A stretch of DNA of 64,000 nt. Source: a virus. A program made the translations under genes and the position numbers. Positions 3,901-59,983 of this stretch are shown here, one piece after another. The first letter of the stretch is position 1. Each line of letters begins with the position of its first letter. The DNA lies in the IMG/VR virus record IMGVR_UViG_3300035396_000367, positions 27,738-91,737 of that record; one strand, 5' to 3'. The notes under the pieces were generated by a model that saw only the letters and a list, made by a program, of their open reading frames with translations, had not been told where the DNA came from and did not search any database.

Positions 3901-5377
3901 TTCCACCCCTGCCATCTACTGTACCACCCTCTATCACAATATTGTGAGGTACTTTTAATGCTACACCTACACCACCATTCGAGTACCAACCTACGTACCT
4001 GTCGAGTTGAACTTTAACGCCATCAACCTTTAATACAGAGTAAATCTCACCTGAGAACCCAACTGAGTTATCATAGTAAATTATTCTATCACCAGCCTTT
4101 AACGTTATACCTGCTACAGATATCTCAGTATCTTCTTCGGATGCGTGTGATCCTATACCGGTATTCTCCAAACTTTTAACAATAAATTTTGCCTCTTTGC
4201 TCCCTTTGATTAAAACAACACCGTCGCTTAGTCGTATATTGTTCCAAGAGTTTAAATAAATCGGATTATAAAAAACGTACCCGGGTACACCCTGTGTACT
4301 TTCTTCCCACCCCGGAGAAGCATTCTCTGGAGCCGGAGGTTCTAACACTACACGAAGACCTTCCGGCCACTCTATTCTACCAGTTACTGAATTGTAACCA
4401 CCGTAAGTAGCAGCAGCCGGATCATCTTTTTCCCCAAACAATGTAACTAACTCTTTATGTGATTTTACCTCATACCTGTAAGCCACCTTTTTTCCACCTG
4501 CGGATGGTAGTGTTATCTGACCTTGTGACCTCGCGTAATCAAAATAAATCGAAATGTAACCTAGTGATGTGTTACCGCTTGTAACCTTTGCGTACAGCGG
4601 ATCTGACCCATTCCAATTTAGTGATGAAATATTAAGTATTTGAAAACCTGAATCTGTTTCGAAGAAACTACCAGCTACAGCACCTATTCCTCCGGCAGTA
4701 TCCTGACCGTACATTGTAAATCGTAGAGTTTCAACACCCGGTGTCCCAGGTGACTGTGCTTCAGGAAAAAGTTGATTAGTTGATACATAGAAATTTATTC
4801 CGGCGGAGGATAGCACTGACTCTTGTGCTTCAATTGTTATTCCCATGTATTTTGGAGCGTCGGGCACTGATGCCACATCTAGTACCGGCTCACTTACGTC
4901 TATTAAACGTATCGCGGAACCAAATGGAAATGAATCTGAGTTTTCGGTGTAACTTCCCTTGAATACAGCTGAGTCGAAATAATCTGAAAGAATGTTTTCA
5001 TTCTCTACTAGGTAATGTGTGAAGTTTCCCCAGAATCCCTGAGTATAGTACAGAGTTGAGGATATGAGATCAGCGAAGCTTTGGTTGAATGCAAGTCCGT
5101 TAAATCCGTCTTCACTGAATTTAGCGTTAACCACTTTGTCAACGAATGTGTCAATTGCTGCAAGCATATCTCCTAGATTCGGAAGGAACACTGCCGTATC
5201 TACGGATAACGCTTCTTTTACTGCTGTCCGAAGTTCCTCGGATAAAGAAACTTTATTTACAAAGCTACTGTCGGAGGCTACAACAGATACAAGGTTCTCT
5301 ATGTACCTGAAGTTCTCCATTAAGTTTTCAGCAATAATCGTGTTGTTAGTACCGAATATATTTTTTAAACCTGACAT
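989..5377 (-). CDS. Tail fibre / receptor-binding protein (1462 aa)
   Basis: Follows hub gene with 1-nt overlap; beta-rich; beta-helix-like segments (NIVIEGGTVDGRG; CSAMYGGMVY, CFALRGGVVY); one CBM5/12-like repeat (WVQGVDYKQSDLV..WRC). Confidence 0.6.
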   Translation of the reverse strand: MSGLKNIFGTNNTIIAENLMENFRYIENLVSVVASDSSFVNKVSLSEELRTAVKEALSVDTAVFLPNLGDMLAAIDTFVDKVVNAKFSEDGFNGLAFNQSFADLISSTLYYTQGFWGNFTHYLVENENILSDYFDSAVFKGSYTENSDSFPFGSAIRLIDVSEPVLDVASVPDAPKYMGITIEAQESVLSSAGINFYVSTNQLFPEAQSPGTPGVETLRFTMYGQDTAGGIGAVAGSFFETDSGFQILNISSLNWNGSDPLYAKVTSGNTSLGYISIYFDYARSQGQITLPSAGGKKVAYRYEVKSHKELVTLFGEKDDPAAATYGGYNSVTGRIEWPEGLRVVLEPPAPENASPGWEESTQGVPGYVFYNPIYLNSWNNIRLSDGVVLIKGSKEAKFIVKSLENTGIGSHASEEDTEISVAGITLKAGDRIIYYDNSVGFSGEIYSVLKVDGVKVQLDRYVGWYSNGGVGVALKVPHNIVIEGGTVDGRGGIYDVAGSYGIPPAPHFTEVRSSLFDGKIPADFGRSINYTNTSTQNWGPDNMNTTAYFVVDLSPGIKVLTRRSEDAGNYGLFSVWDYSDNELHAEVSFSESEAVIWHHPLKISDDEIIIFYQGAVSRNKLKWVTYKVSATSVILQHRGILQDYAMSGDYTQVSEFAQGCLNSSRIFYDETCKMFSMFYSDLNSENVPLYWSGSDITVKLIAFTFSSDRSSLRVTSNYSYPDKLVNILFQASTHLLADVASLGGGKFVLTTRCVINSSGGQYRVVVVEMYNPVLTNTGDDAGTPDPILGYWILRVLADIGEEDLALPGFFASIRSGAFNYYKFDKFDWMNKDSFNLPVVVDSAGRIFITYRKGEVDPDLAIAELEYIHNPATDIQYWVQGVDYKQSDLVIHTIGATELLAVWRCKQDNLSSVQNKPYVNDANWEAIYEIDSPPTIGILNTKVSTNLFKIKPGNYTPYSSNWASSINASFSYVLSAVKSQDDRIFFLMYSYMKTAVNLHAAKITSHELNLSDFSTLSTVVHADTSPVSNPYLVLGYKVWYPDKPDIRITPAGTIAVCDNLEVSSGAVVPEIDRGGLVEVIEGADLKITSKVLNCSAMYGGMVYAEKALNINISDAEACFALRGGVVYGGYGVTVLSSFTAALFGEGHVVNLAKDVFVEARRVPATGVLVSNSTHVIAHTYDKGEFEQDGNLKLYGSIETSGDMTGRYAKFETLYVKRILSFNSYVDFPLGITTPVVTADIFKLRNNTSFKFEGLVKTNALEVLGVSNLSSGSVMIPSNDHFGPPNSNPRFAAAVARGLEVETLGTDIYTSLLNLWEAHNPDLAGFENPWWGHYRGIRNVCRYYDQGGGIDINGFIAACQLFSTRTQQIGGSFFNAVFLEGDFSVAGDYMVAGSPQKEEGTAGDWDVLCNAPGKTVNVYALRVTPSKLHVLFRYVSGSSIKCGEVILTRAWGSFNCIVSCSAHY

Positions 5378-46833: not shown

Positions 46834-46862
46834 ATTATACTTCTTATTTCAAAAAAGATCAA
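46834..46862 (-). promoter_or_regulatory. sigma70-type promoter for protease/capsid genes
   Basis: TTGATC-17nt-TATAAT(AC) on minus strand. Confidence 0.5.
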
Positions 46863-48634
46863 TCAAATGTCACGTTAAGCATTTCAGCCACATCTTGAGC
46901 CATCAGATCCATCCAAGCGGAAGCTGCTTGTTTCCGTTGTTGCTTCCTATCACCTATGGGTGTCCCGGAGCCTACAGGCCTTCCACTCATCCCATTCAAT
47001 TCTTTTTTGTTTGTTTTAGTTTTGCCGCCCTCTTCGTCGTCGTCAACCTCTTCTTCTTCTTCCGTTTCACCTTTCTTAGATGAACCGCTTGTTTCGGCAG
47101 CTTTGTGATACGGGCTACCCAGCATAGGAAGCATACCTCTTTTTCTAAGGCTGTACTCTTTCTGAATTTGCTGCTGAATTGCTGACCAGTCTTCACCGAT
47201 TTCTGAACACACCGACTCAGCCGATAGTATTCCTCTGTCAACCATCCCCTGGTAAATTTTATACAACGATACTTTGTCGTCAAGATTGATTGTTTTAAGA
47301 TAAGGTGTTGGGCAAGAGTCGAAACCCATTATCTCTGCAACGAGTTCCATTTCACCTTTTAACCAGTTGGAAAAAGCGTCCTGACCATCTTTCATGTTCT
47401 CAATCAAACCACGTAAAGACATCCAGGAGTTACCGGCCATATCCTTAGTGTTACCCAGTATAATCTTTGTTATACCAAACCCCTCCAGGATATCTGCGTT
47501 AACAGAATCGTACTTCGAATCATTTAGGAAATCAGTTTTTACATCAATCCACTGGATGTCAATCGCATGGTTCCATACCAACTCTAGCAAGTCACCTTTG
47601 CTTTTCATAATCGACGCGATCATATTGATGTCTTCTGTTCTAGCCGGGAACTTGTCATTCCCCACCTTGATTAAAAGTATTTTTGAAATCACGGATTCAA
47701 TAACTCTCTCATCCGCTTTTCGCATATTATCTTTTCTAACAAGGTGAGGTAGTATTGGCTGCAACAATACTTCTGGATCACAGTCGTAGTCTTGTTTCAT
47801 TCGATAAACTACGCTGTAAAAGTCGCTCGTTAATTCTACTTCATTTTGATTCGATTTCAGTTGAGAATATAAAATCTCCGGCAATGGGAAAGCTCTATTT
47901 AATAAGTTGCTTCCCAGAGATTCAAGCTTGTGAAAAATTGTTTTTAGTTCTGTCGGAGGAACCCACTCTACTACTTCCATTCCGAAGTAAGGTGTTCCTT
48001 TTTTTTGAATCTGTAGCGGGTCTAGAGTAGTGTACCCTGATGGAAGCATCTTTTTTGTCCAACGTAACTTCTTTGCCGCTTCATCTTTAGTGTACCCCTC
48101 CCCAACGTATGCGGCTGTAGCTCTTATCCTTGCGTCAATATCTTCACGCACATTACTTGTTAGTATTGCTTCACCCAATATTTTCGTACTGCCAAATCCA
48201 CTGGGGTTTTTAAAAAGTCTTTGACCTATCGTACCTTTAAAAGGAAGGCTTGACCTAACTGAGTGAACTACTGAGGAAAGATAGTAGTCCTTGAAAAACT
48301 TCTTTTGAAAATCATTTATACCGGAAAGTGAAATCCAATCTTTATAAAATTCAACATTCTTTTGCTCACCCATGAATGATACAGGTGTTGCAGAAAATTG
48401 AATCATAGTTTCAAATATTCTTCTAGCTAGAGAATCGCGGATGAAGAAGTCTCGTGACATTACAACAGATTTTTTATAATTACGATTTTTAAACCCGAAG
48501 GAATACTGTGCACCAGGGAGTGCACTCCTCGAGTAGGTAGTGGAGGCCTTGTCCCTATCTGGAACACCAAGTATAACTTCAAGTGTTCCGTTTGGTAAAA
48601 TTTTTACTTCATTTTCTTCAGTATCGTTTTTCAA
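46859..48634 (-). CDS. Portal protein (591 aa)
   Basis: After TerL; YRMKQDY, ILLIKVGNDKFP, KYDSVNADILEGFGI; TTG start with GGAAGGA RBS. Confidence 0.8.
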   Translation of the reverse strand: MKNDTEENEVKILPNGTLEVILGVPDRDKASTTYSRSALPGAQYSFGFKNRNYKKSVVMSRDFFIRDSLARRIFETMIQFSATPVSFMGEQKNVEFYKDWISLSGINDFQKKFFKDYYLSSVVHSVRSSLPFKGTIGQRLFKNPSGFGSTKILGEAILTSNVREDIDARIRATAAYVGEGYTKDEAAKKLRWTKKMLPSGYTTLDPLQIQKKGTPYFGMEVVEWVPPTELKTIFHKLESLGSNLLNRAFPLPEILYSQLKSNQNEVELTSDFYSVVYRMKQDYDCDPEVLLQPILPHLVRKDNMRKADERVIESVISKILLIKVGNDKFPARTEDINMIASIMKSKGDLLELVWNHAIDIQWIDVKTDFLNDSKYDSVNADILEGFGITKIILGNTKDMAGNSWMSLRGLIENMKDGQDAFSNWLKGEMELVAEIMGFDSCPTPYLKTINLDDKVSLYKIYQGMVDRGILSAESVCSEIGEDWSAIQQQIQKEYSLRKRGMLPMLGSPYHKAAETSGSSKKGETEEEEEVDDDEEGGKTKTNKKELNGMSGRPVGSGTPIGDRKQQRKQAASAWMDLMAQDVAEMLNVTFD

Positions 48635-48685: not shown

Positions 48686-50539
48686 TCACCTCAGAGCCGC
48701 TGTACCGGATATTCCGCGCTGTGAAAACCAGTTATTTAGTCTAGCGGCACCCTCCAACTCTTTCGCTGGCATAGGTCTTGAAAGAGCTGCAACATTCGCT
48801 GACTCACCACCTATTGCACTTGTCCAACCACCAGATGCCAGCCCTATCTCAAAATCTCCGTTAGCCGCATTCTCACAGCCTTGCATGTACGACTTAAATA
48901 TTTGAAGTCCACCCATAAACGCTGAGTACCTATCCTTTCTCTGACGCGCACGCGGGGTATCCCAGTGTGGATTACCAGTTGAAGTTTTAGTCATTACGAT
49001 TGTTGTTATTTCTGTCTTCAGCTCATTCACTTGAATTTCTATCTCCTCAAGCTCTGCAACTTCATCCGCAGTTTTCCCAACCAAATCATTTACATCCAAT
49101 GGCGTAGGGAATACAACTTCTTTCGTCTCCATCGATGCTAACATTCCGTGATTAGCGATACTTAACCACGTCGTGTGAAAAGGAACTAGCTGTAACAAGT
49201 GTAGTCCCGGTTTCTTAAATTCTTTTTTGTCATCTAGGTAGGAGTCGTCATCCTCTATGTTCCAAATTGGATGTTCCCCTATAGGCACTTTATCTGGGTC
49301 ACATAGAATATCCGCGATAGCATGTCCACCACCCCCGGAGTCCATACCTATGTGCATAAAATTAAAACGACGATGTAACATCCTAAGCCTATCCGCAGCT
49401 TCCTGAAATTTTCTTCCGTTCACTACTGATACATTCACTGGAGCATACCTCGTGTTTGTATTTGTGTTTACTTTTTTCAAAACAACAAACGAGCAGTTAT
49501 CCGACGTACGCGCGGGGTCAACGAATAGAACATAGCTCCCGTTTTCAACACCTGAAACTTCATAGTGAATTTTTAATGATTTATCCCAACAGTTCATAAC
49601 GATACTCGCAGGGAAAAAACCACCTGAGTCAGACGGGAATAATGTTTCGTACTCCATCTTGAACTGCATACTGCTCATTTTTTCTTTTGCCATTAAAACG
49701 GATTCTATCGACATGAAACCCTCTGGAAGCATATTGTACGCGAGCTTGTATACAGCGTAACTCTTCCACAGCTCCATATTCTTTTCAACTAATTTTTTCT
49801 CAGTGATTATTTTCACATACTTTTTAAGCATGTCGTATAGGTGATTGAATTGATAAAACGCAGTCGAGGCTGCTACAACATAGTTACGTGTCAACTCTTC
49901 CGTTGAACCGAATATTGCATCTATCTCACCTTCCCTACCCTCTTCCCTAAGTCTCTGTTTTACAGCTTCTCTTCTCGCTGACTTTATAGGATCTTTTTTA
50001 GTCGCGGTCATACCTAGAATTACAACATCCAAAATCTCAAGAGGAATTTGCGCAATCTCATCCAGTAGTAAAAAGTAAAATCGAGCTCCACGAATCTTTT
50101 CACCATCCCCGAGAGGTAACGCTTGAATAATTGAACTATTTTTAAACCCCAACTCACACATGTCTGTACTTCTAACCGGTGGCTTCACACACATATCTCT
50201 AAAAACTTTCGAAGCCCTGTACATACGCTCAATCTCTGCAAAAACCATTTTAGATTGCCTGTATGACGCAGCAATTATACCAACTTTTTGACCAGAGTAT
50301 AGGGCTGCCCTCAGCGTTGCAAGCACTGCTAACTGGAACGTTTTACCTGCACCGCGCGTAAGTATTAAAAGTGTGAAGGGGAAGTACCAGGATACGATCA
50401 GCATCAGTCTCTGAAACGGTAGTAAGTCGATACCAAGAATCATCTCGGCTGCACGATCTGGCCTACACCTAAAGTAGCGGAGCATACGCTTCTCCGCCGT
50501 TGATAAATACCTGAGACCCGTCTCTTTGTCAAAAATCAT
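48686..50539 (-). CDS. terL: Terminase large subunit (617 aa)
   Basis: LLPFQ adenine motif, Walker A TRGAGKT, KIRGAR, Walker B LLLDE, ASTA, nuclease FVDPAR and KDRYSA. Confidence 0.93.
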   Translation of the reverse strand: MIFDKETGLRYLSTAEKRMLRYFRCRPDRAAEMILGIDLLPFQRLMLIVSWYFPFTLLILTRGAGKTFQLAVLATLRAALYSGQKVGIIAASYRQSKMVFAEIERMYRASKVFRDMCVKPPVRSTDMCELGFKNSSIIQALPLGDGEKIRGARFYFLLLDEIAQIPLEILDVVILGMTATKKDPIKSARREAVKQRLREEGREGEIDAIFGSTEELTRNYVVAASTAFYQFNHLYDMLKKYVKIITEKKLVEKNMELWKSYAVYKLAYNMLPEGFMSIESVLMAKEKMSSMQFKMEYETLFPSDSGGFFPASIVMNCWDKSLKIHYEVSGVENGSYVLFVDPARTSDNCSFVVLKKVNTNTNTRYAPVNVSVVNGRKFQEAADRLRMLHRRFNFMHIGMDSGGGGHAIADILCDPDKVPIGEHPIWNIEDDDSYLDDKKEFKKPGLHLLQLVPFHTTWLSIANHGMLASMETKEVVFPTPLDVNDLVGKTADEVAELEEIEIQVNELKTEITTIVMTKTSTGNPHWDTPRARQRKDRYSAFMGGLQIFKSYMQGCENAANGDFEIGLASGGWTSAIGGESANVAALSRPMPAKELEGAARLNNWFSQRGISGTAALR

Positions 50540-51649
50540 CTAGTAAACTTCCCCACGCTCGATTTCCGAGTCATCTGCTTTCAGAATGTTATAGGAACGA
50601 TCCAGGATACCTCTTATACTTTCCTCATCTGGCCCGTACATAAGACCAGACTCTTGCCCGTCAACCTCTCCGTTCATACCACCCTCTGCTGCCATTCGAC
50701 GTTTTATTTTATCAACAAAACCAAGAAGTTCAACGTTATCTTCTTTGTCAGCATGTTCGATAATTTTTCTTTGGCTCTCTTTGTCGAACAGTGCAACAAT
50801 ATCAGATAGAGATTGTTCGTCGTATGAATTTTCTTGCTTACGGTTTTTTCTCGAGAACCTTAAATTGTTCTGGAACCCCTGCATCCGTTTATACGACTCG
50901 GTGTATTGCTTTTGATAATCTTGGAATACTTTTGAGTTCCTGGATTTCTGCTGCATCTTAAACATTTGGTTCTGCATAATAATTTCGCGAACCAATCCGC
51001 ACATATCATCAAAATCTTCTGCAAGATTAAAATCGTTGCTGTGAGCTTTAGCGTAATGCTTCCACGTGTTTACAAATATCGACCATTCGTCCTCGCTGAA
51101 CCCCGGGCGGATCATAACGAATCGTGACGTGAAGTCCTCGAGTAACATCTCATCTTTCTGCCCGGCCGGTATCATCTCCAGAACATCTTCTTTTATCTCA
51201 TAACGATATTTCTCAAGCTCCTCAACAAATGTGAGAGCTGTCTTCACTTCGATCTGTGTATGTTCTCCACTGTACGGATTCTCAGAAACCGGCATACCTT
51301 TTTTAACAAGGTTATTCTTTGCACGATAAAACTCAATTGATTTTTTTGGAATTCCTAAAACAGATGCCATCTCCGCGTCGGACATGTTCATATAATTTGT
51401 GGCAATATACTGTTTCATCTCTGCGTCGAGATGTGTGGAAAACGGTTTTCCTCGTGGAGATTTTTTTTCTGACTCCATTTCTTCTACACCTATGTCTTCA
51501 AATGGCCCAGGCCCGATAGGCGATGGTTCTGAAATGTCGATAGGTTTTGATTGTTTTTCGATCTCTGTTATTAGTTCATCGATGGGTACCGACTTCATAA
51601 ACGAAGGTACTGTAGGAGGTTTTAAAAAATCAGGTATTTTTTCGTCCAT
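50540..51649 (-). CDS. Putative terminase small subunit / HTH protein (369 aa)
   Basis: Directly upstream of terL; HTH MSDAEMASVLGIPKKSIEFYR; helical C-terminal region. Confidence 0.5.
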   Translation of the reverse strand: MDEKIPDFLKPPTVPSFMKSVPIDELITEIEKQSKPIDISEPSPIGPGPFEDIGVEEMESEKKSPRGKPFSTHLDAEMKQYIATNYMNMSDAEMASVLGIPKKSIEFYRAKNNLVKKGMPVSENPYSGEHTQIEVKTALTFVEELEKYRYEIKEDVLEMIPAGQKDEMLLEDFTSRFVMIRPGFSEDEWSIFVNTWKHYAKAHSNDFNLAEDFDDMCGLVREIIMQNQMFKMQQKSRNSKVFQDYQKQYTESYKRMQGFQNNLRFSRKNRKQENSYDEQSLSDIVALFDKESQRKIIEHADKEDNVELLGFVDKIKRRMAAEGGMNGEVDGQESGLMYGPDEESIRGILDRSYNILKADDSEIERGEVY

Positions 51650-51830
51650 AGACTTGCACCACTCTTAACATTCTTGGGTATTTACATACAACACTTTCTG
51701 TCTCTGCATCGTACTTTACAAAATGCTCACACTCTGATTTACAATAATCTTTTGTCACCAGAGAATTTACAGTGCTTGCTAGAATCGGGCACTGCACAAC
51801 TGCGTCGCCCGGTTTCTTTACAGCATCCAA
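51630..51830 (-). CDS. Small Cys-rich (putative Zn-binding) protein (66 aa)
   Basis: VQCP..YCKSECEHF..VVCKYP; TTG start adjacent to the actin stop. Confidence 0.6.
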   Translation of the reverse strand: MDAVKKPGDAVVQCPILASTVNSLVTKDYCKSECEHFVKYDAETESVVCKYPRMLRVVQVYGRKNT

Positions 51831-51831
51831 G

Positions 51832-52839
51832 TTACAGCAGACCTTTTATTAAGCAACCTTTTGCTACAGCTTTAAAAGGATCACTCACTTGGAATACATC
51901 ACCAAAAACAACTTTGTCACCAGTGGCAGTTACAACATTTGTTTTTGCAAGAATCGTTTTGAAAATATCAACGAAACCTTTCGGTGCCGAAGTACCCCCG
52001 GATATCGCGATAGGAAGTGCCCGAGGGAATTTACGACTCATCGCTCCGAATTGTTTTTGAATCGTGTGAATCGAATATGAAATAAGTTCGGTGTAATAAA
52101 CAGAAAGTGCTTGAAGCGTTCCAGCCTCATACTTTTTGTTTAAAGAAAACTTTGTGCTGTCCTCTTTGAGTGAACGAACAACTGGAATAGGTGAATCTAT
52201 TGCGAGAGATGTTGATTGGTCAATCCAGTCACCACCACGTGTGATTGCGAACTGGCAGACTGGCATACTCATCCACATGACTGCGAAGTTTGTCATACCT
52301 GATCCAAAGCTGATAGCAATACCGGTGTACCCGTGTTCTTGTAACCCGGCGTACCCGACTGCAATTGCTTCGTTCAATGGCTCTGCTTCGTACCCGAGAG
52401 ATTCAATAATCTTTTTCAAACTCTCTCTGTGATAAACCAGTGCGTTGGCTTTAGCTACGTCATCGCACGCGTCCGCAGGTATTGAGTAAACAACTTTGTC
52501 TCCCGACTTAGCTGGCTCATCCCCGAGTACACCTTCGATTATAGATCTGATTACGATCAACGCTTCAGGCTCTCTGTTTGAGATATACCCTTTTGCTAAC
52601 GGCCGTCGAACCTCTTGTCCAAAAACTTCTCCGAACTCGAGTGACTTGTCCCCGACGATAAAAAGTTTGTCTCCGTGGATAACATAGTTTACGTCAGAGC
52701 CATTGATCATTTGCTGACGTGTAAATTCATTGTTAGGTGCTTCGAAAAAAGCATCACGCTGTGTGTATGAAACAAGCTCTTTCCCTTTGTTGAACATTCC
52801 GACGATAAACGCCGTTCCGATATCTAGACCTTTAACCAT
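51832..52839 (-). CDS. Actin-like ATPase (actin/MreB/MamK superfamily; 335 aa)
   Basis: Phosphate-1 GLDIGT, RRPLAKG, YSIPA, connect-1 LNEAIAV, phosphate-2 ISFGSGMTN, RGGDWID, adenosine ISGGTS, connect-2 AVAKGCL. Confidence 0.88.
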   Translation of the reverse strand: MVKGLDIGTAFIVGMFNKGKELVSYTQRDAFFEAPNNEFTRQQMINGSDVNYVIHGDKLFIVGDKSLEFGEVFGQEVRRPLAKGYISNREPEALIVIRSIIEGVLGDEPAKSGDKVVYSIPADACDDVAKANALVYHRESLKKIIESLGYEAEPLNEAIAVGYAGLQEHGYTGIAISFGSGMTNFAVMWMSMPVCQFAITRGGDWIDQSTSLAIDSPIPVVRSLKEDSTKFSLNKKYEAGTLQALSVYYTELISYSIHTIQKQFGAMSRKFPRALPIAISGGTSAPKGFVDIFKTILAKTNVVTATGDKVVFGDVFQVSDPFKAVAKGCLIKGLL

Positions 52840-53209
52840 TTGTTTTTCCTTTCCTTAAATTTTTTAAAGCTGCAATTGAATCTGCCGTGTCATCCACTTT
52901 GGTTGTCGCCTCAGATCTGACACTTGACTGAACCCCGGAGAAGTCCATGTTTATTTCCGGTAAAATTTCTTCTGACTTAAAACTACATTGTTGATGTAAC
53001 GGAAAACTTTCATGCCTATCCTGTACTGGATAGCTCACACTCGTTCTCTCAATTACAACCGGTGCCGTCTGATTCAGCCCAGTGACTTCTACTACAAATT
53101 TTATAGCACCTGACTTCAGGTACTTTACTACAGCAATAACGCAGACCACCATAGCAACGATGGCGATGCACATCAAAGATATTGCTATCGTCATCAGTGT
53201 TCGAGTCAT
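52832..53209 (-). CDS. Single-pass membrane protein (125 aa)
   Basis: N-terminal hydrophobic helix, polar linker, C-terminal amphipathic SIAALKNLRKG; overlaps the actin start. Confidence 0.7.
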   Translation of the reverse strand: MTRTLMTIAISLMCIAIVAMVVCVIAVVKYLKSGAIKFVVEVTGLNQTAPVVIERTSVSYPVQDRHESFPLHQQCSFKSEEILPEINMDFSGVQSSVRSEATTKVDDTADSIAALKNLRKGKTNG

Positions 53210-53499
53210 TTCGTTTCCTCTGGTTTTGTTCTTACAACTCCGGCTGAGTTTTCCATGGCTACACGAATCTGTCCTACCGCTGTCATAACTGCGGGACCAC
53301 CGTTTAGTCCGACAATTATTCCAGGAACATTCAGTGCTTGAATCACAGCAATCATTGACGGATACTTAAGTGCCAGGATTGGAAGTACGAACACGACCCA
53401 AATTAAAACTACGGCGGATATCGCCCCGGAAATAATCAGGGAGATGAGAGCAACCTTGGTACCGGTTCTAGAGATGTTGGCTAGGGTGTTATTAAACAT
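53206..53499 (-). CDS. Small two-TM membrane protein, holin-like (97 aa)
   Basis: ATG 53499 with GAGGA RBS; two hydrophobic stretches, charged C-terminus. Confidence 0.5.
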   Translation of the reverse strand: MFNNTLANISRTGTKVALISLIISGAISAVVLIWVVFVLPILALKYPSMIAVIQALNVPGIIVGLNGGPAVMTAVGQIRVAMENSAGVVRTKPEETK

Positions 53500-53529
53500 T
53501 TTTTGTTCCTCACTGTTTTCCAAAGTTGT

Positions 53530-53558
53530 ATTTTAAGATGAACCTCTTTGTCTGTCAA
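53530..53558 (-). promoter_or_regulatory. sigma70-type promoter of the morphogenesis operon
   Basis: TTGACA-17nt-TAAAAT(AC), ~30 nt upstream of the first ATG. Confidence 0.7.
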
Positions 53559-53568
53559 TCCCTTATAG

Positions 53569-53739
53569 CCCGAAGGGGTCGAAGACCCCGTCAGAACCTC
53601 CACGAAGTGGGGTTCCTTTATTGCGACGTTAGTCGCATAGATCACGGAGCGAAGCGACGTGATCATTGTCCAAAAAAATGTACCAAATAAAAGTCCAAGT
53701 AAGTATAATACGGGGACACGAAGTGGACACGTATTATAC
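53569..53739 (+). other. Cluster of five DNA hairpins with GAA/GTTA loops and tandem G.A pairs
   Basis: 53575-89, 53594-615, 53622-37, 53640-64, 53703-39 (sequences in findings). Confidence 0.75.
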
Positions 53740-53888
53740 GTGACCATCCGTGAAAAAAACAGGCCTGTTTTACGTGCAAAAACGTGTACGGTAAGTATAC
53801 ACTTTTTCAATATAGTATCCGTATTTTGCTTATTTGAGTTAGGTGCGCTCCGACTGGCATCGAAAAGTATACAAATTTTTTTATAATA

Positions 53889-54045
53889 TTGCACTAAATA
53901 TTCGAATAACTTTTGCGTATTTTCAGCATAACTAACTAATGTTCGTGAAAATACGTAAAAGTTATAAAAAAAAATTGACAGGAGTGTACCTTTTTTCGTG
54001 ACCAACATATTCTCTACTTACAGTTATAAATCAATTTTAGTGCAA
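53889..54045. repeat. Nested AT-rich inverted repeats
   Basis: 20-bp arms 53906-25/53946-65 (1 mismatch) inside 10-bp arms 53889-98/54036-45. Confidence 0.65.
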
Positions 54046-54164: not shown

Positions 54165-54193
54165 TTGACAAAAACCAATTGTTCGATTATAAT
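54165..54193 (+). promoter_or_regulatory. Consensus sigma70 early promoter
   Basis: TTGACA-17nt-TATAAT exactly. Confidence 0.85.
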
Positions 54194-58681: not shown

Positions 58682-59408
58682 ACCACTTGAAATAACCTGC
58701 TTTAAAGATCTAACATTCGACGAACCTAACCACAGGTACTTCTACGCAGGTTACGAGTTAATTTCCGTCACCACTGTTATAAAAGAATTTCACGAGAAAT
58801 TCGACCCGGAAGTACGGTCTAAAAACTGTTCGCTGCAGCGGAAAGGGTTTCATCCCGACTGGATAATGCAGCTATGGGAATGCAATAAGATATTCAAAGG
58901 CATTCGTGGAACAGAGTTCCACCTTTACGCGGAGGTTTTCCTCAAGTCAGGCCTTAAACTTCCATTCAACACGCCTATTGCGCACCGTGTCGTTCAGTTT
59001 CATAAATTCATTGCTGCCATACCAAACCTTAAACCGGTAGCGATAGAGCTAAGAATTTTCTCTACTCGGTGGAAAGTTGCAGGTACTATCGACAATATTT
59101 TCCAGGATATTAACACTGGGCTCTACTATATCATTGACTGGAAGACTGATGATACAATGGAGTACGTTGGTTTTGATAATAAAATGATGTTTGAGCCTTT
59201 TCAGAACTTACCAGACTCAAACTTCTATCATCACTGCGTACAACAAAATATTTACAAACACATCATAGAAGAATATGTCGGTATTAAAATATCTGACTGT
59301 TTTCTGGCGCATTTCCCTATGGAGGAGAAATTTGACATACTTAAGTGTATTGAAATAGACAGATCAATCTTCGATGATGCCTTTGTTAAACTTGGAAAAA
59401 AACTATGA
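58668..59408 (+). CDS. PD-(D/E)XK (RecB-family) exonuclease
   Basis: FDEPNHRY, SVTTVI, RGTEFH, AIELRI, AGTID, IIDWKT, QQNIY; ATG 58668 follows AAGGAG. Confidence 0.88.
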   Translation: MLRYEPLEITCFKDLTFDEPNHRYFYAGYELISVTTVIKEFHEKFDPEVRSKNCSLQRKGFHPDWIMQLWECNKIFKGIRGTEFHLYAEVFLKSGLKLPFNTPIAHRVVQFHKFIAAIPNLKPVAIELRIFSTRWKVAGTIDNIFQDINTGLYYIIDWKTDDTMEYVGFDNKMMFEPFQNLPDSNFYHHCVQQNIYKHIIEEYVGIKISDCFLAHFPMEEKFDILKCIEIDRSIFDDAFVKLGKKL

Positions 59409-59983
59409 TTAGAAAATTTCTATTGTTAACACTCCTGCTTGTGTTATTTGTCCCTGCTCCTAGCTATGACTTTTCAGGTGTTCAAGAAACAATTGATAAG
59501 CATGTAAAACCTAGATGCTGGTTCTTAGATAGGTTAGCCTATGTAGAATCAGAGAATAGAGACAATGCTGTTAATGCAAAAACAGGTGCAATCGGACGGT
59601 ATCAAATAAAACCAGGACATGACGGTGCTTTAGAGTATTACAATACTTTCAACCCCTCTGTTCGTTCCGGGAAGAGAAAACCTTACACGAAGCAAGACCT
59701 TTTCATACCTGCGGTAAATAAGAGAATAGCAATATTCGACTTAAATACTTCATATCATTACTTCTCTAAAATGTACCCGAGTATACCAAGCCGGCATATC
59801 GACATTTTCGTAGCGAATGCCCATAATGCCGGAAGAACAGGTACTGAAAATGGTGACATTTTAAAAAAGTATCTAACTGGTATTTTCGGTGAAGTTGTAG
59901 TGTTTGAATTTTTAACACACGCTTACTCAACAAATTTGTTAGGAAGTTTAGATGAATTTCGTACTATATACGTAAGGAATTAA
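59405..59983 (+). CDS. Lytic transglycosylase (SLT/lysozyme-like) with signal peptide (192 aa)
   Basis: MIRKFLLLTLLLVLFVPAPS signal; YVES catalytic Glu, GAIGRYQI, AHNAG. Confidence 0.78.
   Translation: MIRKFLLLTLLLVLFVPAPSYDFSGVQETIDKHVKPRCWFLDRLAYVESENRDNAVNAKTGAIGRYQIKPGHDGALEYYNTFNPSVRSGKRKPYTKQDLFIPAVNKRIAIFDLNTSYHYFSKMYPSIPSRHIDIFVANAHNAGRTGTENGDILKKYLTGIFGEVVVFEFLTHAYSTNLLGSLDEFRTIYVRN

Follow-up and report, generated by a model that had tools for sequence, protein, structure and literature searches.

This study concerns a cluster of genes on the minus strand of the IMG/VR virus record IMGVR_UViG_3300035396_000367, which totals 91.7 kb and is estimated by CheckV to be about 49% complete, and of which we have analysed one stretch of 64,000 nucleotides (nt), referred to here as the window. 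The cluster encodes, in this order and all on the minus strand, a protein of 97 amino acids (aa) that starts with ATG and shows two hydrophobic stretches in its translation (the 2-TM protein, for two transmembrane (TM) segments; 53206..53499), a single-pass membrane protein of 125 aa that we call the adaptor (52832..53209), an actin homologue of 335 aa (51832..52839), a 66-aa protein with four cysteines and a TTG start (51630..51830), a putative small terminase subunit of 369 aa, named terS-like from its position (50540..51649), the large terminase subunit TerL, which is matched by Pfam Terminase_6N and Terminase_6C and by phrog_2 at E 8.2e-25 (48686..50539), and a portal protein matched by phrog_2739 at E 5.5e-11 (46859..48634). 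In front of the cluster lies a sigma-70-like promoter, TTGACA-17 nt-TAAAAT (53530..53558, minus strand), which agrees with the consensus at 11 of 12 positions in a consensus scan; this is a match of pattern and no more, and shuffled sequence has at least as many promoter-like sites as this region. The first and second genes overlap in ATGA, the second and third by 8 nt and the fourth and fifth by 20 nt, and 1 nt separates the third from the fourth; these junctions fit translational coupling. The first-pass annotation of this DNA, made from its letters, had described four translationally coupled genes followed by terS, TerL and portal, and both the coordinates and the overlapping or abutting junctions agree with that description, TerL and portal being identified by Pfam or PHROG and terS by position only. 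It had also remarked that neither a ParR-like adaptor nor an endolysin is adjacent. Indeed, none is found in the operon: the products adjoining actin are membrane proteins and the four-Cys protein, none of the proteins adjoining actin matches a DNA-binding family in Pfam or PHROG, and the nearest candidate for a wall hydrolase, a weak SLT match (E 0.0018), is 6 kb off on the opposite strand. None of the first four genes has a match in PHROGs.

The main finding from the sequence searches is that the actin homologue, far from being an unclassified oddity, belongs to the established volactin family. Residues 1-331 match positions 1-319 of the 321 positions of the Pfam Volactin profile PF25216 with an E-value of 2.8e-63 (214.8 bits, cut-off 35), a match that was reproduced in a search of the whole record, and the protein shares 36% identity and 61% similarity over 332 residues with the volactin orthologue of Haloferax gibbonsii (E 5e-79). 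In an alignment with 20 relatives, D6, G8, T9, N156, E157, G281, G282 and T283 are invariant or nearly so, and S177, G179, G181, M182 and N184, in the region of the SFGxGM motif (177-182), are invariant. The DxGT, NE, SFGxGM and GGT motifs are found likewise in the Haloferax gibbonsii orthologue. The first-pass annotation had read the phosphate-2 motif SFGSGM as atypical of actins, where DxGxGT would be expected. The motif is present as described, but the word atypical does not hold within this family; because it is invariant among all 20 aligned relatives, SFGSGM is better regarded as a hallmark of volactins than as a defect. The actin fold that had been proposed is borne out by an AlphaFold2 (AF2) model with a mean predicted local distance difference test score (pLDDT) of 92.7 and a predicted template modelling score (pTM) of 0.90, whose top Foldseek matches are MamK (5ljv) and MreB (4czk), at E-values of about 1e-13 and template modelling scores of 0.65-0.71. 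A sequence-profile search of the Protein Data Bank (PDB) with the actin returns MamK (5jyg, E 3.6e-9) and MreB (4czf, E 1.4e-4) as well, and no volactin structure is among the matches of either the PDB sequence-profile search or the fold search. The Pfam MreB_Mbl profile stays below its cut-off (E 0.096, 11.9 bits versus 27), with no stretch that passes alone.

The adaptor encoded directly upstream of the actin carries a TM segment near its N-terminus (about residues 5-28), then a linker of some 65 residues, and at its C-terminus the conserved tail. Lysines (K29, K32 and K37) come after the TM segment, as they do in two related loci, L003 and L047, and because of this the C-terminus of the adaptor is predicted to be cytoplasmic. 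In 44 of 80 IMG/VR loci coding for relatives, the actin is preceded on its own strand, in most cases immediately, by a gene for a protein of about 222 aa (cluster c3). The C-termini of these c3 proteins share the motif D.A..ALK.LRK, which is followed by basic residues, and the last 45 residues or so of the window adaptor can be aligned with the partners of other phage actins. A tail profile was built from 37 distinct huge-phage c3 tails only, with the window protein left out, and searched against 12,442 open reading frames (ORFs), made up of the six-frame window ORFs of at least 35 aa together with those of all loci. The profile matches residues 93-122 of the window adaptor (52844..52933, minus strand; core AALKNLRKGK) at E 4.2e-4, and at E 4.7e-6 after one iteration, and the adaptor is the sole window ORF that it matches; reversed and shuffled databases gave a best E-value of 2.8. 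All 68 tail matches outside the window (E of 1e-3 or below) precede an actin gene of the same strand, and 52 of them adjoin it directly. The tail family is thus found only upstream of volactin-type actins, which upholds the earlier proposal that this single-pass protein with its C-terminal peptide is the partner of the actin. The same profile also matches the 4-TM protein directly upstream of haloarchaeal volactin (DUF7139, CdpA-like), and in Haloferax gibbonsii this partner carries two tandem copies of the tail motif. It has been reported that the CdpA-like protein HVO_2016 adjoins volactin and that volactin is recovered in CdpA pull-downs (PMC12126565).

The proteins that carry this tail differ considerably in their remaining parts. 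The carrier has one TM segment in the window and in L003, L200 and L047, and four TM segments, forming the DUF7139 domain, in haloarchaea; in huge phages it is a soluble, partly coiled-coil protein, and in bacterial metagenome bins it shows a weak helix-turn-helix (HTH) region (IclR HTH at E 0.003 and AbiEi_4 at E 0.002, both below the cut-offs). A constant tail joined to a variable N-terminal part is what would be expected if the tail served to bind actin and the remainder of the adaptor determined its location or cargo. The bins in which the N-terminus of the partner is winged-helix or HTH-like are L084, L104, L114 and L082, where the respective ORFs end just before position 4001. If these HTH regions are real, they would represent ParR-like DNA adaptors on a volactin filament. 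We have also considered whether the basic tail could arise merely from the purine-rich ribosome-binding site in front of actin, AGGAAAGGA in the window encoding RKG. Such an origin may play a part in the last few residues of the tail but does not account for the AL..L core further upstream, and it fails in haloarchaea, where the motif lies 20-70 residues before the stop codon and about 100 nt before the actin gene.

The gene order around the actin is conserved in two diverged relatives, L003 and L200, which keep the TM adaptor, the actin, the four-Cys protein, the terS-like gene and TerL in the same succession. L003 lies on a 180-kb IMG/VR contig, with 48% identity in actin and 59% identity in TerL; here the four-Cys gene is followed by an insertion of an IscB-like gene and a further small gene. 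L200 is a metagenome contig with 51% identity in actin and no insertion. Homologues of the terS-like protein are found directly before TerL in both (36% identity and E 2e-64 in L003), and the protein itself has no Pfam or PHROG match. The insertion in L003 includes a 457-aa ORF between the four-Cys and terS-like genes (L003:7332-8705, plus strand) with a PLMP-like N-terminal part and RuvC-like D.G and HNH motifs, which looks like an IscB-type (OMEGA) nuclease and is absent at the same site in the window and in L200. The four-Cys protein, whose sequence follows the pattern V.CP … C…C … C.YPR, is encoded directly after the actin in L003 and L200 too. Its family is small, with 10 relatives among 1.84 billion representatives, and C14, C30, C34, C49, P52 and R53 are invariant in 9 sequences; it is possibly a metal-binding protein.

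The 2-TM gene has a GAGG 8 nt upstream of its ATG, and its stop codon overlaps the next start in the ATGA; an alternative TTG start at 53523 would extend the product to 105 aa but would fall at the predicted transcript start. A search of 5.8 billion protein clusters found only the protein itself, and no relative was found in IMG/VR or in the retrieved loci. The first-pass annotation had counted the 2-TM protein among the members of the actin module, and had suggested conservation of the TM-actin neighbourhood as a check. The neighbourhood is conserved as far as the adaptor, the actin and the four-Cys protein before terS and TerL are concerned, but the linkage of the 2-TM gene is not; it is an orphan that is absent from L003 and L200 and may be unrelated to the actin system. 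Because the 2-TM protein is without relatives and is missing from both related loci, the conserved unit consists of three genes, not four.

Relatives of the actin are widespread. At least 562 IMG/VR stretches encode them, many on contigs of 100-500 kb, and an identical actin protein is found on a second contig of 167 kb. These IMG/VR relatives were found with an alignment, single-protein queries being insufficient: single-protein IMG/VR scans with the actin, the 2-TM protein and the four-Cys protein returned no matches. At least 472 stretches in species-representative genomes also encode relatives, mostly in haloarchaea and in bins of diverse bacterial phyla, which may include phage contigs. 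Among GenBank phages no near-identical DNA was found, and by protein only two unannotated huge-phage records match, at 30-33% identity. In a FastTree phylogeny the window groups with L003, P0002 and P0004 (support 99), 61 huge-phage sequences form a separate group, and the haloarchaeal volactins form one tight clade (support 100) that lies next to a clade from bacterial bins and apart from the phage sequences. We draw no direction of transfer from this tree because it is unrooted and was made by a quick method. The only actin relative that is longer than the others is P0121, a metagenome protein of 704 aa with Hint, intein-splicing and LAGLIDADG domains, which represents a volactin interrupted by an intein; no natural fusion of adaptor and actin was found.

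Volactin genes of other phages are also found among genes for virion assembly. L044 has its volactin gene flanked by those of a T4-like portal and a major head protein, L004 has it immediately ahead of a portal-like gene, and the actin of 55 huge-phage loci is followed by a gene whose product, as modelled, resembles phage neck proteins (E 7e-8, with a low template modelling score). Portal and capsid genes were considered as the conserved neighbours of the huge-phage volactins and were rejected, since the next gene is neck-like, the upstream family is virus-only and TerL is far off. In 50 huge-phage loci, namely L028 (L028:3409-4785, plus strand) and 49 others, a conserved protein of about 455 aa (cluster c2) is encoded 2-3 genes before the actin; its C271, C291 and C294 are invariant and C273 is nearly so, its Atlas clusters are virus-only, and it has no Pfam, PHROG or PDB match. 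The huge-phage loci further encode a zinc-ribbon protein (cluster c6, Zn_ribbon_8) two genes past the actin. In the Haloferax gibbonsii locus L089, volactin is followed by a convergent gene for a zinc-ribbon protein with an acidic tail (L089:5135-5815, minus strand), which has weak matches to Pfam zf-FPG_IleRS and Zn_ribbon_TFIIB, and then by a tubulin-like gene of the CetZ/FtsZ type (L089:5616-6926, plus strand). The likeness between the zinc-ribbon proteins of the huge phages and of Haloferax may be a coincidence.

Taken together, these observations suggest a mechanism in which the adaptor is inserted in the membrane and its tail docks on a polymerising actin, giving membrane-tethered filaments, and to this mechanism we assign a probability of about 0.6. 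The TM segment would hold the adaptor in the cytoplasmic membrane with the remainder of the protein in the cytoplasm, and a flexible linker would present the short conserved C-terminal helix for docking on the actin. Like the founding member of its family in Haloferax volcanii, the actin probably assembles into ATP-dependent filaments. With tail docking and a TM anchor, these filaments would therefore start from, or be held at, the inner side of the membrane. The adaptor would be modular, the same tail being borne by a TM anchor, a 4-TM DUF7139 domain, a coiled coil or HTH-like domains, and the four-Cys protein would be a third component specific to this clade. In Haloferax volcanii, Volactin-msfGFP (VolA-msfGFP) forms dynamic filaments in vivo whose tips touch the membrane (PMC10869688), and a model of membrane-tethered filaments agrees with such tip-anchored filaments in Haloferax.

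The closest known system is accordingly that of VolA (HVO_2015) and HVO_2016 in H. volcanii. The two systems are alike in the full-length family of the actin, in the invariant SFGxGM, NE and GGT motifs and in a membrane protein, encoded directly upstream, that ends in a tail of the D.A..AL..LR type. They differ in that HVO_2016 has a 4-TM DUF7139 anchor whereas the phage adaptor has one TM segment, and the partner in Haloferax gibbonsii has two copies of the tail where the phage adaptor has one. Unlike haloarchaeal volactin, the phage system is carried by what we judge to be a tailed phage of a bacterium, adds a four-Cys protein and adjoins the terminase genes. The type II plasmid partition system ParMRC and the related AlpC/AlpA of prophage CGP3 resemble it in having an actin-fold ATPase with a small adaptor encoded beside it, and ParR binds its filament through a C-terminal helix. 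ParR is a DNA-binding adaptor, whereas the phage adaptor is a membrane protein without a DNA-binding fold and is not known to be tied to centromere repeats; the phage actin is also outside the ParM and Alp families, and ParM ranks low among its fold matches. MamK and MreB, the nearest solved structures by both profile and fold, act at membranes through partner proteins, but they share only about 17-19% identity with the phage actin and differ in the phosphate-2 motif. Neither end of the phage actin shows an amphipathic helix of the membrane-binding kind. The filaments PhuZ and TubZ, which form spindles in jumbo phages, have a tubulin fold, unlike the actin fold described here; the present phage is not known to form a phage nucleus, and no match to the tubulin family PF00091 was found in the record, about 49% complete as it is.

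Several points weigh against this mechanism, or against linking it to packaging. Throughout the volactin family, Ser and Met occupy the phosphate-2 positions at which other actins have Asp and Thr, and our literature search turned up no in vitro assay of any volactin. The topology of the adaptor is a prediction from the positive-inside rule, and docking of the tail on actin is what we infer from the conservation and position of the tail. The tails of L003 and L200, the two closest relatives, resemble the motif by eye but are not significant with the profile. The 2-TM gene is not conserved, and the TerL of huge phages is encoded 40-300 kb away from their actin. Finally, adjacency to the terminase genes says nothing of the cargo, as phage gene order reflects timing as much as function.

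Such filaments might serve to organise capsid assembly or packaging, to control the shape or division of the host, or to position phage DNA. The recurrent placement of phage volactins among virion-assembly genes is circumstantial evidence for the purpose, and late expression of the actin operon is plausible from the company of genes that it keeps. We speculate that bacterial tailed phages widely encode a volactin cytoskeleton with interchangeable adaptors built on one ancient docking tail shared with haloarchaea, and that in the present phage this cytoskeleton is tied to the membrane and made together with the terminase and portal in order to organise capsid assembly or packaging spatially. 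In this full form the proposal is tentative and we regard it as somewhat doubtful. A membrane-anchored actin could instead alter or freeze the shape, size or division of the host without organising any phage component, an explanation that shares its mechanism with the one we prefer and differs from it in purpose only. The sole functional data for the volactin family concern cell shape, namely the rod-to-disk transition of Haloferax (PMC10869688), the archaeal volactin partner and CdpA, which anchors the division ring, are paralogues (PMC12126565), and the window adaptor has a plain TM segment for its anchor, without a recognisable cargo-binding domain. Yet phage volactins recur among virion-assembly genes and not among early host-takeover genes, and no host target is identifiable, so that we consider a takeover of host morphology rather unlikely.

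That the filaments position or segregate phage DNA as ParM or AlpC do, moving or holding genomes that are being replicated or are ready for packaging, appears improbable to us; in such a scheme the membrane adaptor would fix one end of the filament and a further protein would connect it to DNA. Points in its favour are the weak HTH-like N-terminus of the bacterial-bin partners, which is reminiscent of ParR, and the dynamics of volactin, which have been likened to those of ParM (PMC10869688), but the window adaptor has no DNA-binding domain, an ORF regarded as ParB-like is without a Pfam match at E 0.01 or below, and no ParA-type ATPase was found in the roughly half-complete record. The missing phosphate-2 Asp in SFGSGM could also mean that the protein is an actin-fold ATPase that does not polymerise but works as a chaperone or enzyme in head assembly or packaging, the tail being the peptide of a client or regulator; EutJ, an actin-fold protein that is not cytoskeletal, is indeed a fold match at rank 17. 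As SFGxGM is common to the filament-forming volactin of H. volcanii (PMC10869688) and the best sequence and fold matches, MamK and MreB, are filament formers, this explanation is highly improbable. Class II holins are small and typically have an N-in/C-in topology, and by this comparison the size and likely N-in/C-in topology of the 2-TM protein would suit a holin in a lysis cassette, in which the single-pass protein would be an antiholin or spanin-like and the actin an accessory. We find such a cassette scarcely credible, since the operon is without an endolysin, the relatives in which the other three genes are retained lack the 2-TM gene, and the tail of the single-pass protein belongs to the actin-partner family. 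Membrane-tethered filaments thus remain our preferred reading of the three-gene unit.

Phage cytoskeletons described so far are mainly the tubulin-like PhuZ and TubZ and a few actins of the ParM or Alp type. PhuZ and TubZ are phage-encoded cytomotive filaments for intracellular organisation (reviews PMC7950403, PMC8314001), and AlpC is a precedent for a prophage-encoded actin (PMC4446434). Our literature search on phage-encoded actins turned up AlpC, plasmid prophages of the ParM type and tubulin systems and nothing else, phage actin homologues go unmentioned in a 2026 review of jumbo phages, and of 17 papers that contain the word volactin, the 14 judged by title and abstract include none on phages. 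We found no paper describing phage volactins or membrane-tethered phage volactin filaments. What the window adds is a single-TM variant of the adaptor, a conserved position before the terminase genes, a rare four-Cys companion and a direct statistical test that ties the phage tail to the archaeal DUF7139 neighbour. If the proposal is true, a widespread actin-based system, represented on at least 562 IMG/VR contigs, would be added to phage cell biology, and the poorly understood archaeal volactin would gain a testable binding partner and motif. The modularity of the adaptor, with its TM anchor, 4-TM domain, coiled coil and possible HTH region, suggests a general plug-in mechanism that is testable with short peptides.

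Some further features of the region bear on the identity of the carrier. Past a divergent control region, the plus-strand genes are replication genes, for RecD-like and UvrD-like helicases, and among the replication genes lies the gene with the weak SLT transglycosylase match mentioned above, whose product of 192 aa has an N-terminal hydrophobic segment (59405-59983, plus strand). Because the promoters are of the sigma-70 type, Shine-Dalgarno sites are present and the SLT gene is nearby, we take the carrier to be a tailed phage of a bacterium. A 175-aa ORF upstream of the 2-TM gene (53481..54008, minus strand), which is without a family match, is probably not a gene because it overlaps the promoter and the hairpin-rich control region. 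A perfect sigma-70 consensus (TTGACA, 17 nt, TATAAT; 12 of 12 positions) is found at 54165-54193 on the plus strand, where it faces the divergent replication-gene operon, opposite the 11-of-12 promoter in front of the actin genes; it suggests that the host is a bacterium whose housekeeping sigma factor is of the standard kind.

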